DNA from: Shigella phage ESH35
Sequence record: ON528745
DNA length: 64,000 nucleotides
Reading direction: 5' to 3' (one strand)
Shown here: positions 3,413-11,851 of the stretch, in pieces
Position numbering within the stretch: position 1 is the first letter of the stretch
Layout: every line of letters starts with the position of its first letter
Notes under the pieces: model-generated
Told to the model about the DNA's origin: nothing
Seen by the model: only the letters and a program-made list of their open reading frames with translations
Database searches by the model: none
Translations under genes and position numbers: made by a program

Positions 3413-4235
<823 letters not shown>

Positions 4236-4254
4236 AATAACGCGCGGCGGAAAT

Positions 4255-4602
4255 ATGAATTTTAATTATTACCCTATTCTATTAGAAAAAGATGAGAAAC
4301 AGCCAAAGTGGCAGGGTCCTCAGTTTATTAAAGGTGTCTATCAATTAGTAGTTCCTAAAGACAAGATTTATAGCAGTTGTTTCACTGAATCCGCTTGTAG
4401 TATTTTCGGTAATAGTTCTCCGTATTGGAATTTTGACATAAAGCTGGATAGAAATATCGATATTTGGTTGAAAGCTATGGATATTGGTAATATCACGTTT
4501 GATGAGAATAATTATCATATTATTGGTCGCTTTTCCAAACGCGGTAAAGAATTATATTTCACGCCTGAAATTGAGAGAAAATTTGATGCTAAACCGTATT
4601 GA
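4255..4602 (+). CDS. Hypothetical protein (115 aa) in an insertion between frd and td
   Basis: ORF with upstream GGCGGAAAT-ATG; no family recognised; lies inside a 416-bp segment flanked by duplicated TAAATGAAA. Confidence 0.55.
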   Translation: MNFNYYPILLEKDEKQPKWQGPQFIKGVYQLVVPKDKIYSSCFTESACSIFGNSSPYWNFDIKLDRNIDIWLKAMDIGNITFDENNYHIIGRFSKRGKELYFTPEIERKFDAKPY

Positions 4603-4647
4603 TTATTTAGCTTCATAAAATGTATTATAATTTATATAAGGTACTAA

Positions 4648-5508
4648 ATGAAACAATACCAAGATTTAATTAAAGACATTTTTGAAAATGGCTATGAAAC
4701 CGATGACCGAACGGGCACAGGAACAATTGCTTTGTTCGGTACTAAATTGCGTTGGGATTTAACCAAAGGTTTTCCTGCAGTAACAACTAAAAAGCTCGCC
4801 TGGAATGCATGCATTGCTGAGCTAATATGGTTTTTATCAGGAAGCACAAATGTCAATGATTTGCGATTAATTCAACATGATTCATTAATTCAAGGCAAAA
4901 CAGTCTGGGATGAAAATTACGAAAATCAAGCAAAAGATTTAGGATACCATAGCGGTGAACTTGGTCCAATTTATGGAAAACAGTGGCGTGATTTTGGCGG
5001 TGTAGATCAAATTATAGAAGTTATTGATCGTATTAAAAAACTGCCAAATGATAGGCGTCAAATTGTTTCTGCGTGGAATCCAGCTGAACTTAAATATATG
5101 GCATTACCGCCTTGTCATATGTTCTATCAGTTTAATGTGCGTAATGGATACCTTGACCTTCAGTGGTATCAACGTTCGGTAGATGTTTTCCTCGGTCTTC
5201 CATTTAATATTGCATCATATGCTACGTTAGTTCATATTGTAGCTAAGATGTGTAATCTTATTCCGGGAGATTTGATATTTTCTGGTGGTAATACTCATAT
5301 CTATATGAATCACGTAGAACAATGTAAAGAAATTTTATGTCGTGAACCTATGGATTTATGCGAATTACAATTAAAATTTCCAGATGAATTTGATGAATGG
5401 GACACAGAATCGCAGGTATTTTGGTTGAGTCAATTTGCAAAGCCTCATAATTTTGTTCTTAACAACTATGAATCACATCCTCCTATTAAAGGAAAGATGG
5501 CGGTGTAA
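4648..5508 (+). CDS. td: Thymidylate synthase, uninterrupted (no group I intron)
   Basis: 286-aa continuous [29 protein letters not shown]...[11 protein letters not shown]...PIKGKMAV; TS active-site Cys motif present. Confidence 0.95.
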
Positions 5509-5528
5509 TTTTATTATTGCGAGGATAT

Positions 5529-5792
5529 ATGATTTTACGATTTAAAGATACTTCTGGTGTAGTTCTTTTTACACTTCCTAATCCAAGTGAGTTAGAAGTT
5601 CCAGGACCAAATCAGCCTATTATCATTTATGGTAAAAAGTATTATACTCATAAAATGACTCGTGAGTATTTTGATAATAAAATTTCCACAGTTAAAACTT
5701 CTTCTGATTGCTACTATGATATTACTGTTTTAACGGAACAACAATATGAAGAATTATTACCGCGCGGGCCGTCTATGCCAGGTAGTGAATAA
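5529..5792 (+). CDS. Hypothetical small protein (87 aa; start uncertain, TTG at 5517 possible)
   Basis: ATG at 5529 after GAGGA; overlaps the next ORF. Confidence 0.45.
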
Positions 5793-6072
5793 ATATAAAT
5801 CCGACTTTGATGTTAATATTCACCGCGGTACATTTTGGGGAAATTACGTCGGTAAAGATGCTGGCAGCCGGGAGGCTGCCATTGAATTATTCAAAAAAGA
5901 TTTTATACGTCGAATTAAATCCGGAGAAATAACTAAAGCACATTTAGAGCCTTTACGTGGAATGAGGCTAGGATGCACATGTAAACCAAAGCCGTGTCAT
6001 GGTGATATAATAGCTCATATAGTTAACCGATTGTTTAAAGACGATTTTCAAGTTGAGGACTTATGCAATTAA
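5746..6072 (+). CDS. Hypothetical protein with DUF4326-like Cys/His motif (108 aa)
   Basis: Product contains ...[22 protein letters not shown]... resembling the CxC...CHGD signature of DUF4326 proteins (recalled from memory); stop overlaps the nrdA start. Confidence 0.5.
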
Positions 6073-8327
6073 TTAATGTTATCAAAAGTAGTGGTGTTTC
6101 TCAGAGCTTTGACCCGCAAAAAATTATTAAAGTTTTATCTTGGGCAGCCGAAGGAACATCTGTAGATCCTTATGAATTATATGAAAATATTAAATCATAT
6201 CTCCGTGATGGAATGACCACTGATGACATTCAAACCATTGTAATTAAGGCTGCTGCGAATTCTATTTCAGTTGAAGAGCCTGATTATCAATACGTAGCCG
6301 CTCGCTGTTTAATGTTTGCTCTTCGTAAGCATGTTTACGGACAATATGAACCACGTTCATTTATTGACCATATTTCTTACTGTGTAAATGAAGGTAAATA
6401 TGACCCTGAACTGCTGTCAAAATATTCAGCAGAAGAAATTACATTTTTAGAATCAAAAATTAAGCACGAGCGGGATATGGAATTTACTTATTCCGGTGCG
6501 ATGCAATTAAAAGAAAAATATCTAGTTAAAGATAAAACCACTGGTCAAATTTATGAAACTCCGCAGTTTGCATTTATGACTATTGGAATGGCACTGCATC
6601 AAGATGAACCTGTTGATAGATTAAAACATGTTATTCGTTTTTATGAAGCAGTATCTACTCGACAGATTTCATTACCAACTCCTATTATGGCTGGTTGTCG
6701 TACTCCGACTCGACAGTTTAGTTCATGTGTTGTTATTGAGGCAGGTGATTCGCTGAAGTCTATTAATAAGGCTTCAGCTTCAATTGTTGAATATATCTCT
6801 AAACGCGCTGGAATTGGTATTAACGTTGGTATGATTCGTGCCGAAGGTTCTAAGATTGGCATGGGTGAAGTCCGCCATACTGGTGTTATTCCTTTTTGGA
6901 AACATTTTCAGACTGCTGTTAAATCATGCTCACAGGGTGGAATTCGTGGCGGCGCTGCTACTGCTTATTATCCTATTTGGCATTTGGAAGTTGAAAATCT
7001 TCTCGTTCTAAAAAATAACAAAGGTGTTGAAGAAAACCGTATTCGTCATATGGATTATGGTGTTCAGCTGAATGATTTGATGATGGAACGATTCGGAAAG
7101 AACGATTACATTACTTTGTTCAGTCCGCATGAAATGGGTGGCGAGCTTTATTATTCTTATTTTAAAGACCAAGACCGTTTCCGTGAATTATACGAAGCAG
7201 CAGAAAAAGACCCTAATATTCGTAAAAAACGTATTAAAGCCCGTGAACTATTTGAATTGCTCATGACTGAACGTTCAGGAACAGCAAGGATTTATGTACA
7301 GTTCATTGATAATACGAATAACTATACTCCGTTTATTCGTGAAAAAGCACCTATTCGTCAGAGTAACTTGTGCTGTGAAATTGCTATTCCAACAAATGAT
7401 GTGAATAGCCCCGATGCTGAAATTGGATTGTGTACTCTCTCTGCATTCGTACTGGATAATTTTGACTGGCAAGACCAAGATAAAATTAATGAATTGGCAG
7501 AAGTCCAAGTTCGTGCTCTTGATAATCTTTTGGATTACCAAGGATATCCAGTTCCTGAAGCAGAAAAAGCTAAAAAGCGTCGTAACCTCGGTGTAGGTGT
7601 TACCAACTATGCAGCTTGGCTGGCAAGTAACTTTGCTTCTTATGAAGATGCTAACGATTTAACACATGAACTATTTGAGAGATTACAGTATGGACTCATT
7701 AAAGCATCCATTAAGCTCGCCAAAGAAAAAGGACCTTGCGAATATTATTCAGACACTCGTTGGTCTCGAGGCGAATTACCTATCGACTGGTACAATAAAA
7801 AGATTGACCAAATCGCAGCTCCAAAATACGTTTGTGACTGGTCGTCGCTGCGGGAAGACCTTAAGCTCTTTGGCATCCGTAATAGCACATTATCAGCACT
7901 TATGCCATGTGAGTCATCTTCCCAAGTTTCTAACAGTACAAACGGTATCGAGCCTCCACGTGGACCAGTCTCTGTTAAAGAATCAAAAGAGGGCTCCTTT
8001 AATCAAGTCGTGCCCAATATTGAGCATAACATAGACCTCTATGATTATACATGGAAATTAGCTAAGAAAGGTAATAAACCTTATCTCACGCAGGTAGCTA
8101 TTATGCTGAAATGGGTTTGTCAATCAGCTTCGGCGAATACATATTATGACCCGCAGATTTTTCCAAAAGGAAAGGTTCCAATGTCAATAATGATTGATGA
8201 CATGCTATACGGATGGTATTATGGCATTAAAAACTTCTATTATCATAATACTCGTGATGGTTCCGGTACTGATGATTACGAAATAGAAACTCCAAAAGCC
8301 GATGATTGCGCAGCGTGTAAATTGTAA
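6063..8327 (+). CDS. nrdA: Aerobic ribonucleotide reductase large subunit
   Basis: 754-aa product with ATP-cone N-terminus and class I RNR catalytic core (NLCCEI, C-terminal CAACKL); T4 NrdA length. Confidence 0.95.
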   Translation: MQLINVIKSSGVSQSFDPQKIIKVLSWAAEGTSVDPYELYENIKSYLRDGMTTDDIQTIVIKAAANSISVEEPDYQYVAARCLMFALRKHVYGQYEPRSFIDHISYCVNEGKYDPELLSKYSAEEITFLESKIKHERDMEFTYSGAMQLKEKYLVKDKTTGQIYETPQFAFMTIGMALHQDEPVDRLKHVIRFYEAVSTRQISLPTPIMAGCRTPTRQFSSCVVIEAGDSLKSINKASASIVEYISKRAGIGINVGMIRAEGSKIGMGEVRHTGVIPFWKHFQTAVKSCSQGGIRGGAATAYYPIWHLEVENLLVLKNNKGVEENRIRHMDYGVQLNDLMMERFGKNDYITLFSPHEMGGELYYSYFKDQDRFRELYEAAEKDPNIRKKRIKARELFELLMTERSGTARIYVQFIDNTNNYTPFIREKAPIRQSNLCCEIAIPTNDVNSPDAEIGLCTLSAFVLDNFDWQDQDKINELAEVQVRALDNLLDYQGYPVPEAEKAKKRRNLGVGVTNYAAWLASNFASYEDANDLTHELFERLQYGLIKASIKLAKEKGPCEYYSDTRWSRGELPIDWYNKKIDQIAAPKYVCDWSSLREDLKLFGIRNSTLSALMPCESSSQVSNSTNGIEPPRGPVSVKESKEGSFNQVVPNIEHNIDLYDYTWKLAKKGNKPYLTQVAIMLKWVCQSASANTYYDPQIFPKGKVPMSIMIDDMLYGWYYGIKNFYYHNTRDGSGTDDYEIETPKADDCAACKL

Positions 8328-9058
8328 TGAATTATCAAAAAATCTATAATGACCTAATTTCCCGAGCTCAGGCTCGGGAATCTTTATCAGAATATAAAGA
8401 GACACATCATATAATCCCTAGATGTATGGGAGGTTCTGATGATAAGGAAAATTTAGTTGAATTAACAGCCAGAGAACATTTTATAGCTCATTTACTACTA
8501 TGTAAGATAAATGAAGGCCATTTTGGGCTTGCTTCTGCGTTAACGTTAATGGCAACAGATAAAGCTGGCAATAGAATTAATAACAGATTGTACAGCTTAC
8601 ACAGAAAATTATTTGCTAAAGCTAATTCTGAGTTCTTTAAGAAATATTGGAAAAATAATCCTCATCCTAAAGGAATGTTAGGCAAGCACCATAAAAACGA
8701 AACTAAACAGCATGTATCAAACGTGAATAGATATGCATGCCCATCTATAGAAATACATAAATTCTCATTAGATGGGGATTTCATAGAAACCTTTCACTCT
8801 ATTGCGGCAGCGTCCCGGTCAGTTAATGGAAACGGGTCAAATATCAAATATTGTGCCGAGGGTAAATTTCAATATGCTTATGGATTTAGATGGTCATATC
8901 AACTTGATGCAAAGTTTGACAAAATAAAACCAAGAGATTATAAAGGAATCCGCGGTAAGAAATGGATTAATAATGGAAGTGAATGCACGCTTATAGGTAA
9001 AGATGATATTATACCGCCAGGTTGGAAACACGGCAGAATTTTAAAGAGGAAAAATTAA
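8327..9058 (+). CDS. mobE: Freestanding HNH homing endonuclease (MobE-like)
   Basis: HNH motif ...THHIIPRCMGGSDDKENLVELTAREH... plus C-terminal IPPGWKHG module; inserted between nrdA and nrdB with ATGA/TAATG overlaps. Confidence 0.8.
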   Translation: MNYQKIYNDLISRAQARESLSEYKETHHIIPRCMGGSDDKENLVELTAREHFIAHLLLCKINEGHFGLASALTLMATDKAGNRINNRLYSLHRKLFAKANSEFFKKYWKNNPHPKGMLGKHHKNETKQHVSNVNRYACPSIEIHKFSLDGDFIETFHSIAAASRSVNGNGSNIKYCAEGKFQYAYGFRWSYQLDAKFDKIKPRDYKGIRGKKWINNGSECTLIGKDDIIPPGWKHGRILKRKN

Positions 9059-10236
9059 TGTCTACAGTTTTTAATACAAATCCAGTTGATGTTTTAAAAG
9101 AACCTATGTTCTTCGGTTCAGGTCTTGGTATTGCGCGTTACGATATTCAACGTCATAAAGTTTTTGAAGATTTAACTGAAAAGCAGTTGTCATTTTTCTG
9201 GCGTCCTGAAGAAGTAAACTTGATGATGGATGCTGCACAATTTAACAAGCTTCCTCAGTATCAGCAAGATATTTTTACTAATAACCTGAAGTATCAATCA
9301 CTTCTAGATAGCATTCAGGGTCGTGCACCGTCTGCAGTACTTATGTCATTAATTTCAGATCCAAGTCTTGATACATGGGTTGCTACATGGACTTTTAGTG
9401 AAACTATTCACAGCCGTTCATATACTCATATCATGCGAAATCTTTATACTGATCCATCAAAGGTATTTGATGAGATTGTATTAGATGAAGATATTATGAA
9501 ACGTGCTGAGTCCATTGGTCGCTATTACGATGATGTTCTTAAAAAGACCCGTGAATGGGAAAATGCTAAAGAATTTGTAGAACTAGCTAAAGAATCTCCT
9601 GATGCTGATTTTCGTTTAAATCGAGCTATTAAACAAGAAGCCGAAGCTAAACGAGCACTAATGAAATCTCTTTATCTTTGCCTCCATGTAATCAATGCAT
9701 TGGAAGCTATTCGTTTTTACGTATCTTTCGCATGTACCTTTAACTTCCATAAGAACATGGAAATCATGGAAGGTAATGCTAAGATTATGAAGTTCATTGC
9801 GCGTGATGAGCAACTTCATCTTAAAGGCACTCAATATATTATTCGTCAACTTCAACTTGGCACTGACGGTGATGAATGGGTTAAAATTGCTCAAGAGTGT
9901 GAACAAGAAGCAGTTGATATTTTCATGGAAGTTAACCGTCAAGAAAAAGACTGGGCAGTTCATTTATTTAAAGATGGCGATGTTCCCGGATTAAATACAA
10001 ATAGCATGTGGAGCTTTATTGATTACTTAACTGTATCTCGTATGAAACAGTGTGGTCTTCCATGCCCAATTACCGATGCTCCGGTTAAACATCCATATCC
10101 TTGGATTCGTGAATACCTTAATTCTGATAATGTTCAATCCGCGCCACAAGAAGTAGAACTGTCATCTTACCTTGTAGCACAGATTGATAATGATGTTGAT
10201 GATAAAGTTATGATGAGTTTTAAAAAATATTTTTAA
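9058..10236 (+). CDS. nrdB: Aerobic ribonucleotide reductase small subunit, uninterrupted
   Basis: 392-aa product from ATG at 9058 (AGAGGA RBS); di-iron/tyrosyl radical RNR R2 family; no intron. Confidence 0.9.
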   Translation: MSTVFNTNPVDVLKEPMFFGSGLGIARYDIQRHKVFEDLTEKQLSFFWRPEEVNLMMDAAQFNKLPQYQQDIFTNNLKYQSLLDSIQGRAPSAVLMSLISDPSLDTWVATWTFSETIHSRSYTHIMRNLYTDPSKVFDEIVLDEDIMKRAESIGRYYDDVLKKTREWENAKEFVELAKESPDADFRLNRAIKQEAEAKRALMKSLYLCLHVINALEAIRFYVSFACTFNFHKNMEIMEGNAKIMKFIARDEQLHLKGTQYIIRQLQLGTDGDEWVKIAQECEQEAVDIFMEVNRQEKDWAVHLFKDGDVPGLNTNSMWSFIDYLTVSRMKQCGLPCPITDAPVKHPYPWIREYLNSDNVQSAPQEVELSSYLVAQIDNDVDDKVMMSFKKYF

Positions 10237-10241
10237 GGAGT

Positions 10242-10263
10242 GGGCCGCAAGGCCCATTTTATT
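10242..10263 (+). terminator. Hairpin / probable terminator between nrdB and denA
   Basis: GGGCC-GCAA-GGCCC (GNRA-type loop) followed by ATTTTATT, abutting the denA start. Confidence 0.5.

Positions 10264-11851
<1,588 letters not shown>

Follow-up and report, generated by a model that had tools for sequence, protein, structure and literature searches.

An RB3-type mobE allele probably occupies the polymorphic nrdA/nrdB site in the intron-less td/nrdB block of a T4-like phage

The window, the whole 64,000-nucleotide stretch of Shigella phage ESH35 that was analysed (sequence record ON528745), comes from an ordinary T4-like coliphage of the genus Tequatrovirus. All of the features described here lie on its plus strand. 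An intron-less td (positions 4648 to 5508) encodes a thymidylate synthase of 286 amino acids (Pfam PF00303, Thymidylat_synt, E 3.9e-94), while nrdA (6063 to 8327, assigned from Pfam matches) encodes the 754-aa RNR large subunit, and nrdB (9058 to 10236, Pfam PF00268), also without an intron, encodes the RNR small subunit, which is 392 aa long when its start is taken as the ATG aligned to the T4 and T2 start codons. Between nrdA and nrdB sits a freestanding HNH homing-endonuclease gene of 243 codons (8327 to 9058), which we assign to the RB3-type mobE alleles from its identity to RB3 mobE. Both of its junctions read TAATG, so that neighboring stop and start codons share one base, as the initial annotation had described, and a GAGG Shine-Dalgarno sequence for nrdB can be read directly within the terminal codons of the endonuclease ORF (9046 to 9049). 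The likely reading of the region is the frd-td-nrdA-nrdB-denA block of Tequatrovirus in its common form, with intron-less td and nrdB and with the polymorphic nrdA/nrdB site occupied by RB3-type mobE. A 115-aa extra ORF between frd and td is present in both the window and T2.

We found that the window td is collinear with spliced T4 td and with T2 td, and that the window nrdB is collinear with spliced T4 nrdB, spliced RB3 nrdB, and T2 nrdB. The td alignment runs without a gap where T4 carries 1017 additional bases (insertion point at td nt 549/550), and the nrdB alignment does so where T4 carries 598 (nrdB nt 676/677). These comparisons bear out the earlier description of td and nrdB as continuous ORFs of 286 and 392 aa, as well as its statement that the T4 genes carry introns with I-TevI in td and I-TevIII in nrdB, the I-TevIII of T4 being defective. 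A degenerate intron remnant was sought in both genes and none was found at either insertion point, since both genes are collinear with those of intron-less T2. An Rfam scan of the window returned no intron match, but it also missed the introns of the RB3 control and is given no weight.

The initial annotation had presented this arrangement as notable, which the phage collection does not support. The td junction lacks an intron in 199 of 382 matching records (about half), the nrdB junction in 496 of 600 (about 80%), and of 497 matches to the nrdA-nrdB junction, 377 (about 75%) are empty. The whole block is matched uninterrupted at 92-97% in at least 12 GenBank phages, so that the window haplotype is one that many GenBank phages share. 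A scan of IMG/VR with NrdB yielded 34 loci, mostly from other genera, and provided context plus four extra Tequatrovirus sequences. Intron-less td and nrdB are thus the usual state and nothing unusual.

A different history would be that both introns were once present and then precisely lost, in which case the phage would not be a naive recipient. RB3 shares the same backbone (96.4% identity) and has both introns, and many intron-bearing td alleles match the window exon 2 exactly from the insertion point onward. However, at both insertion points the exon sequence immediately upstream belongs to the T2-like intron-less type rather than the co-converted T4/RB3 type, and the genes hold no remnant, although a recombinational exchange that brought in an intron-less allele would leave the same picture. 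Loss is quite unlikely on this evidence, and it would have a small effect on function either way.

With td and nrdB read as the common intron-less alleles, we located the counterparts of the two intron endonuclease sites by alignment. An I-TevI site needs a C..G motif that lies 23-27 nt before the insertion point, together with a tolerated binding region (PMC2988022). The window counterpart spans 5170 to 5214, with the insertion point between 5196 and 5197, and has the cleavage motif CAACG at 5170-5174, which corresponds to -27 to -23. Its exon junction differs from that of T4 by seven synonymous changes (-22, -19, -6, -4, +3, +6, and +18), mostly at positions that are also altered in T2, an experimentally good recipient that itself differs from T4 at -22, -7, -6, -4, +3, +6, and +18. 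At the level of sequence, the window td therefore has the features of an I-TevI substrate, and because CAACG is kept and the binding-region differences are largely T2-like, the window phage is probably a recipient for the td intron. In nrdB, the I-TevIII site counterpart spans 9700 to 9760. Its insertion point separates 9733 from 9734, and cuts at the mapped positions -14/-16 (PMC1865063) would fall at 9718-9720. Relative to T4 and RB3, this junction has substitutions at -2, -5, and -14, and the 35 nt downstream are unchanged; the substitution at -14 adjoins the mapped I-TevIII cut.

The gene between nrdA and nrdB was recognized as a freestanding HNH endonuclease in the initial annotation, and its features fit the Mob family of homing-endonuclease genes, with an N-terminal HNH motif of the beta-beta-alpha-metal type, a modular C-terminal NUMOD region, and patchy presence between conserved genes. 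Pfam places NUMOD1 above the cut-off (1.1e-5) and HNH slightly below it (6e-4; 20.3 bits against a curated cut-off of 21.4), and the HNH motif also gave a match to the En domain of group II intron maturases. The protein is 97% identical to RB3 "mobE" and 99.6% identical to its counterpart in Shigella phage SF2-1, and it matches phrog_655, "homing endonuclease," with an E value of 7e-58. We checked for loss of the catalytic residues and found that H27, H28, N42, H51, and H55 are all present and are invariant in 31 homologues, while an AlphaFold model (pLDDT 88.6) folds residues 25-61 as strand-strand-helix. A split or frameshifted gene was considered and rejected, since the ORF is continuous and full-length like its homologues. 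A search of the literature collection used here found no paper on the RB3-type MobE protein. Since the gene is a mobE allele, annotated as such in RB3, the earlier picture of the phage as a recipient only does not hold; the part of it that concerns intron homing probably stands for the I-TevI site, but the phage is likely also a donor of its own predicted endonuclease.

We considered whether this ORF may no longer be a mobile nuclease and may instead be a decaying relic or have another role, such as regulation of nrdA/nrdB. In vitro activity of MobE was never demonstrable even for T4, whose authors allowed a possible regulatory role (PMC2790892), and the related phage L021 has a truncated copy of 146 aa. 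Against this, the full-length ORF is found in 54 records, dN/dS among the Tequatrovirus copies is 0.02-0.14 with invariant catalytic residues, and the gene is patchily present among near-identical phages, which is typical of a mobile element. Several allele types also have N-terminal haplotypes in common, which indicates continuing exchange. Together, these observations make an inactive ORF very unlikely, and we retain the reading of a mobile endonuclease gene.

Comparison with T4 mobE revealed that the gene is chimeric. Codons 1-55 (8327 to 8491, with the protein motif ...HHIIP...NLVELTAREHFIAH) form a catalytic module common to all mobE forms, with about 96% DNA identity and 98% amino acid identity to T4 mobE, and the homology breaks sharply after codon 55. 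The same module heads a 213-aa NUMOD3 form, which diverges from about nt 143. Within this module, a terminator scan identified a terminator-like hairpin (8359 to 8390) with a 9-bp stem, a 4-nt loop, and a short T tract, the stem and loop of which are identical to those of the T4 mobE hairpin, which stops about 30-50% of transcripts (PMC2790892). The allele-specific tail (8492 to 9055) joins a helical linker to a helix-turn-helix of the NUMOD1 type at aa 147-177 and a beta-hairpin module (KWINNG...PPGW), and its 188 codons (56-243) resemble the T4 mobE/nrdB.1 region in neither DNA nor protein sequence. Aligned sequences thus show that, relative to T4 mobE, the whole C-terminal part is replaced by an unrelated NUMOD1-type tail, and the window gene, which shares the insertion site, 5' module, and hairpin of T4 mobE but not a homologous DNA-binding domain, is not its orthologue over the DNA-binding two-thirds. 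Copies of the RB3-type tail with ≥95% identity occur in 54 phage records, and other Tevenvirinae have versions of 47-66% identity at the same locus. With a dN/dS of 0.02-0.07 at a dS of about 0.1, the tail is under purifying selection. Derivation of the tail from RB3 I-TevIII was rejected, as the two have only the generic HNH motif in common.

Among known systems, the closest are the RB3 gene (AIT72962, also called nrdB.2) and its copies in Sf23, SF2-1, G9062, Aplg8, and other phages, which represent the same gene as in the window: they are 97-99.6% identical to it in amino acid sequence and agree with it in length (243 aa), location, and TAATG overlaps. Unlike the window, RB3 also has a td intron with I-TevI and an nrdB intron with intact I-TevIII. 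T4 MobE (Wilson and Edgell 2009, PMC2790892) resembles the window gene in its insertion site, first 55 aa, hairpin, and nrdA stop/start overlap, but its tail carries NUMOD3 repeats and a zinc finger, split into mobE and nrdB.1 in the T4 reference, where the window tail carries NUMOD1. The 213-aa NUMOD3/zinc-finger mobE of Ge15, slur02, FL08, and HY03 sits at the same site, begins with the same N-terminal ~47 codons, and has N-terminal haplotypes in common with RB3-type copies (L006 and L041); it differs from the window in its tail and in a linked haplotype at nrdB nt 22-141 that is found only in its carriers. The best PDB match to the window protein model is I-HmuI, the HNH nicking endonuclease of SPO1 (PDB 1u3e), which likewise begins with an HNH domain and continues into an extended DNA-binding tail with a helix-turn-helix at its end, although the match is weak (E 2.5e-3, TM 0.2-0.3, identity 11%) and I-HmuI is intron-encoded. 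T2, with a collinear td and a collinear nrdB of 392 aa, differs from the window in having an empty 51-nt nrdA-nrdB spacer.

We compared the target side of these alleles in nrdB and nrdA. The in vivo function of T4 MobE, its super-Mendelian inheritance, its nrdB nick site, and the terminator are described in PMC2790892. The window counterpart of this target lies at 9171 to 9213 (nt 114-131, with the nick at nt 122-126, or 9179-9183, and the FFWRPEE codons at 9193-9213). Carriers of T4-type and 213-aa-type mobE have a cluster of nrdB changes around this nick site, and the substitution block at nrdB nt 101-141 is linked to those forms only; the T4 block is missing in the window. The RB3-type carriers (window, Sf23, and L006) are T2-like at nt 114-131 and lack these carrier-type substitutions. 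The window nick site equals that of MobE-sensitive T2 except for a silent C>T at nt 120, which also occurs in the empty-site phages L005 and L036, and the window is identical to L036 over nrdB nt 7-200. Judged from this likeness to T2, the window phage would probably be a recipient for T4-type MobE, and the marker exclusion that the initial annotation had anticipated is plausible for a T4-type enzyme.

On the nrdA side, four RB3-type carriers and four empty-site phages showed fixed differences from each other only within the final 27 nt of nrdA (-27, -17, -14, -12, -3, and -1), at position -122, and in nrdB codon 2. Endonuclease-linked divergence again fell on the nrdA side in a second genus, where one carrier was compared with two empty-site phages. 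The substitutions in the last ~27 nt of nrdA occur in endonuclease-bearing phages only, but since they are also shared with the T4 and 213-aa forms, they may simply mark a common left flank.

These patterns bear on whether the RB3-type enzyme instead recognizes the nrdB site of T4 MobE (nt ~114-156) and tolerates self-cutting. Protective substitutions are missing from nrdB nt 7-300 of its carriers, its catalytic head is identical to that of T4, and self-cutting has a precedent: the freestanding enzymes SegH and Hef reportedly cut their own DNA, in work attributed to Sandegren and colleagues in 2005. Yet in this class of enzymes the site is picked by the C-terminal domain, which in the window is unrelated to that of T4, and in both genera compared the divergence linked to the endonuclease is found on the nrdA side. 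We consider a shared target unlikely, and because the tail differs from that of T4, the target of the RB3-type enzyme would probably differ from that of T4 MobE; the endonuclease-linked substitutions sit at the nrdA 3' end and not in nrdB.

The RB3-type protein is probably a modular enzyme like I-HmuI, in which the tail would bind a long asymmetric site and the HNH head would nick nearby. Its low-level synthesis would draw on nrdA transcripts, some of which would end at the hairpin, and would rely on re-initiation at the nrdA stop (TAATG), the gene lacking its own Shine-Dalgarno sequence. A MotA-type middle or late promoter for nrdB was sought inside the HNH ORF with no convincing match, so the transcriptional wiring of T4 is unconfirmed in the window. 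In mixed infection, the endonuclease would damage phages that lack its gene, and repair would copy the gene and its flanks across. The window phage itself is probably still open to I-TevI and to T4-type MobE, the latter of which could replace its allele. We tentatively suggest that the "mobE" genes comprise three or more alleles that compete for a single site, with a shared head as a recombination handle and different DNA-binding tails. If so, in phages with an empty site the RB3-type tail would bring the nick to the 3' end of nrdA or to the nrdA/nrdB junction, and the T4/213-aa tail would bring it into nrdB. Each allele could then cut carriers of the other and replace it, and a cross of T4 with the window phage would show one allele replacing the other, in one direction or in both, instead of simple homing into an unoccupied site.

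As first stated, the finding is of little importance, as the haplotype is common, the phage group is much studied, and the endonuclease gene is already in the GenBank annotation. The locus does offer a cheap, testable case of freestanding homing endonucleases retargeted by tail swap and of alleles competing at one insertion site. It also calls for a correction, since the literature and annotation treat RB3 and T4 "mobE" as one gene when their common part is the first 55 codons only. Pooling of the nrdB target sites of "mobE-containing" phages is an example of this conflation; the protective substitutions in nrdB follow the T4 and 213-aa forms only.

The source phage is a Tequatrovirus, a T4-like coliphage. 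As the initial annotation had claimed, it carries an HNH homing endonuclease gene (8327-9058, 243 aa) between nrdA (6063-8327) and nrdB (9058-10236) with stop/start overlaps; the two junctions are GTAAATTGTAATGAAT and AAAAATTAATGTCT, so each stop codon and the next ATG have one base in common. The HNH ORF is 97% identical to the RB3 gene annotated as mobE and 99.6% identical to a gene of Shigella phage SF2-1. The backbone is the same in RB3, which additionally carries a td intron with I-TevI and an nrdB intron with full-length I-TevIII. Compared with T4, the DNA is about 96% identical from nrdA onward and up to nt 165 of the ORF, but similarity stops exactly past the last HNH-motif histidine (EHFIAH), with none until the nrdB ATG. 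Inside the stretch common to T4 lies a hairpin (8359-8380; 9-bp stem, 4-nt loop), which Wilson and Edgell found to terminate 30-50% of transcripts in T4 (PMC2790892). Full-length relatives of the RB3 type, 60-74% identical in both halves, lie directly after nrdA in phages of other genera, among them Citrobacter CF1, Yersinia P8, and Salmonella S16/Melville. Among Tequatrovirus copies of the RB3 type, tail dN/dS is 0.02-0.07 at a dS of about 0.1, which means that the protein is maintained. An AlphaFold model (pLDDT 88.6) comprises an HNH strand-strand-helix core, a long helical linker, a helix-turn-helix region, and terminal beta hairpins, and its best PDB match is I-HmuI, a nicking homing endonuclease.

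Protein searches revealed three forms at the nrdA-nrdB site in Tequatrovirus, all with one common head: the RB3 type (243 aa), whose tail is a NUMOD1 one; a second type, 213 aa long, that combines NUMOD3 repeats and a C-terminal CPHC...C zinc finger (Ge15, slur02, FL08, and HY03); and the T4 form, annotated as mobE (141 aa) plus nrdB.1 (83 aa) and apparently related to the 213-aa type but disrupted. At the T4 locus (L001, 6717-7417), mobE and nrdB.1 jointly match the NUMOD3/zinc-finger endonuclease (213 aa) that Ge15, slur02, and FL08 carry intact, and nrdB.1 is near-identical to its final 83 residues. The T4 gene thus looks either mis-annotated or disrupted, yet it is genetically active. N-terminal haplotype does not follow tail type: L006, an RB3-type carrier, is identical to L041, of the 213-aa type, up to about nt 140, which shows recombination within the common head. 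Furthermore, a 281-aa relative from Vibrio phage PVA8 / PC-Liy1 (P0017) joins the NUMOD1 tail of the RB3 type to the CPHC...C zinc finger that is otherwise found in the T4/213-aa forms, which suggests that exchangeable modules make up the tails. Modular shuffling of this kind is familiar among homing endonucleases (PMC10448857). The point worth keeping is that genes called "mobE" include alleles whose DNA-binding tails are unrelated and whose targets probably differ; in the literature searched, this does not seem to be stated explicitly.

Other occupants of this site were also seen. In a 169,650-bp Tequatrovirus contig with td and nrdB introns (L035), a 530-aa ORF (6409-8001) rather than any mobE form lies between nrdA and nrdB and is a fourth occupant, possibly Hef; the nrdA 3' end there is of the type found in empty-site phages, which have no gene at this position. 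Two further loci look like decayed copies, one with a truncated 146-aa RB3-type ORF (L021, 7275-7715) and one whose sole remnant is an 18-residue relic of the T4-type C-terminus directly before nrdB (L030, 7948-8001).

T4 MobE nicks T2 nrdB at nt 122-126, adjoining the FFWRPEE codons, and substitutions at nt 114-131 have been proposed to shield carrier genomes (PMC2790892). Across a set of four empty-site phages, four RB3-type carriers, three carriers of the 213-aa type, and T4, a dense block of substitutions at nrdB nt 101-141 was found in T4 and the 213-aa-type carriers only; in those carriers, it stretches upstream as far as nt 22. The window's nrdB is the same as that of the empty-site phage L036 over nt 7-200 and differs from T2 within nt 114-131 by a single silent C>T at nt 120, so the window has the T4 MobE site in its sensitive form. 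Wilson and Edgell counted RB3 among "mobE-containing" phages (PMC2790892), and because of this pooling both AAG and CGG appear at codon 42 there.

Where the window's own enzyme acts may be different. The only fixed differences that separate RB3-type carriers from empty-site phages are at nrdA positions -122, -27, -17, -14, -12, -3, and -1 from the gene's 3' end and, in nrdB, at codon 2. In a second genus, where the small sample comprises one carrier (L014) and two empty-site relatives (L015 and L034), differences are dense over the last ~170 nt of nrdA and sparse in nrdB. These patterns are a weak hint that the target is at the junction or on its nrdA side; insertion of the endonuclease gene would itself disrupt such a target. 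We offer this as a hypothesis, because the sample is small and the last ~17 nt of nrdA are common to other mobE forms too. The initial annotation cast the phage as a natural recipient for intron homing and marker exclusion; this is reasonable for I-TevI and for T4-type MobE but overlooks that the phage is itself likely a donor of a mobE allele.

The claim that td (4648-5508) and nrdB are continuous also held, since both align to their T4 counterparts without gaps across the sites of the 1017 and 598 extra bases, respectively, and are collinear with the genes of T2, which lacks both introns. An Rfam scan of the window found no intron, a result given no weight because the scan also missed both real introns of RB3. 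I-TevI cleaves 23 and 25 nt before the intron insertion point; it favors a C..G motif there, and many changes are tolerated (PMC2988022). CAACG is kept in the window at -27..-23, and the seven differences from the T4 exon junction (-22, -19, -6, -4, +3, +6, and +18) are all silent. T2 also has seven, six at the same positions, and in crosses T2 inherited the td intron at about twice input (PMC2790892). Many intron-bearing phages have the same exon 2 as the window directly from the insertion point. Together, these features lead us to infer that the td site would be cleavable by I-TevI. I-TevIII cuts at -14/-16 (PMC1865063), and the part of the recipient idea that concerns this enzyme is uncertain, with differences in the window at -2, -5, and -14. 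Short hypervariable patches with indels lie at 5355-5439 (td nt ~708-792) and 9594-9647 (nrdB nt ~537-590), both mosaic among otherwise close phages; the latter sets NrdB length (392 aa in the window, RB3, and T2; 388 aa in T4 and Sf23).

A 120-nt probe spanning the td insertion point matched 199 of 382 records end to end, most others matching exon 2 alone, the pattern of intron carriers, while the equivalent nrdB probe did so in 496 of 600; absence of introns is therefore the usual condition of td and nrdB. A probe over the empty nrdA-nrdB junction of T2 matched over its full length in 377 of 497 records, and 54 records have the C-terminal region of the window's HNH protein at ≥95% identity. 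Thus, the site is occupied in about a quarter of relatives, and by this particular gene in about a tenth. The whole uninterrupted arrangement is present in at least 12 sequenced phages; it is an ordinary configuration that databases already list under the name mobE.

Bases 4200-10700 are matched by 918 phage records, the top matches (Ec_O157kw, Sf23, EO1, JLBYU31, G9062, Aplg8, and G50, among others) being full length, in one piece, and 96-97% identical. Gene order is the same as in T4 and even closer to that of T2, RB3, and Sf23, running from frd (3654-4235) through a 115-aa ORF (4255-4602), td, nrdA.2 and nrdA.1 (5517-6072), nrdA, the HNH ORF, nrdB, and denA (10240-10674, GIY-YIG endonuclease II) to rnlA (10691-11851). 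The 115-aa ORF (PHROG 1928, function not known) is also found in T2, RB3, and Sf23, and other genera have relatives at 26-44%. T4 is the exception, as it lacks the ORF and its frd and td overlap. Past nrdB, the window's denA ORF, with a GTG start at 10240, runs across a GC-rich inverted repeat, GGGCCGCAAGGCCC (about 10243-10256), whereas in Sf23 and RB3 the annotated start lies 24 nt downstream, beyond the repeat; the annotated start codon differs among relatives, giving 144 or 136 aa.
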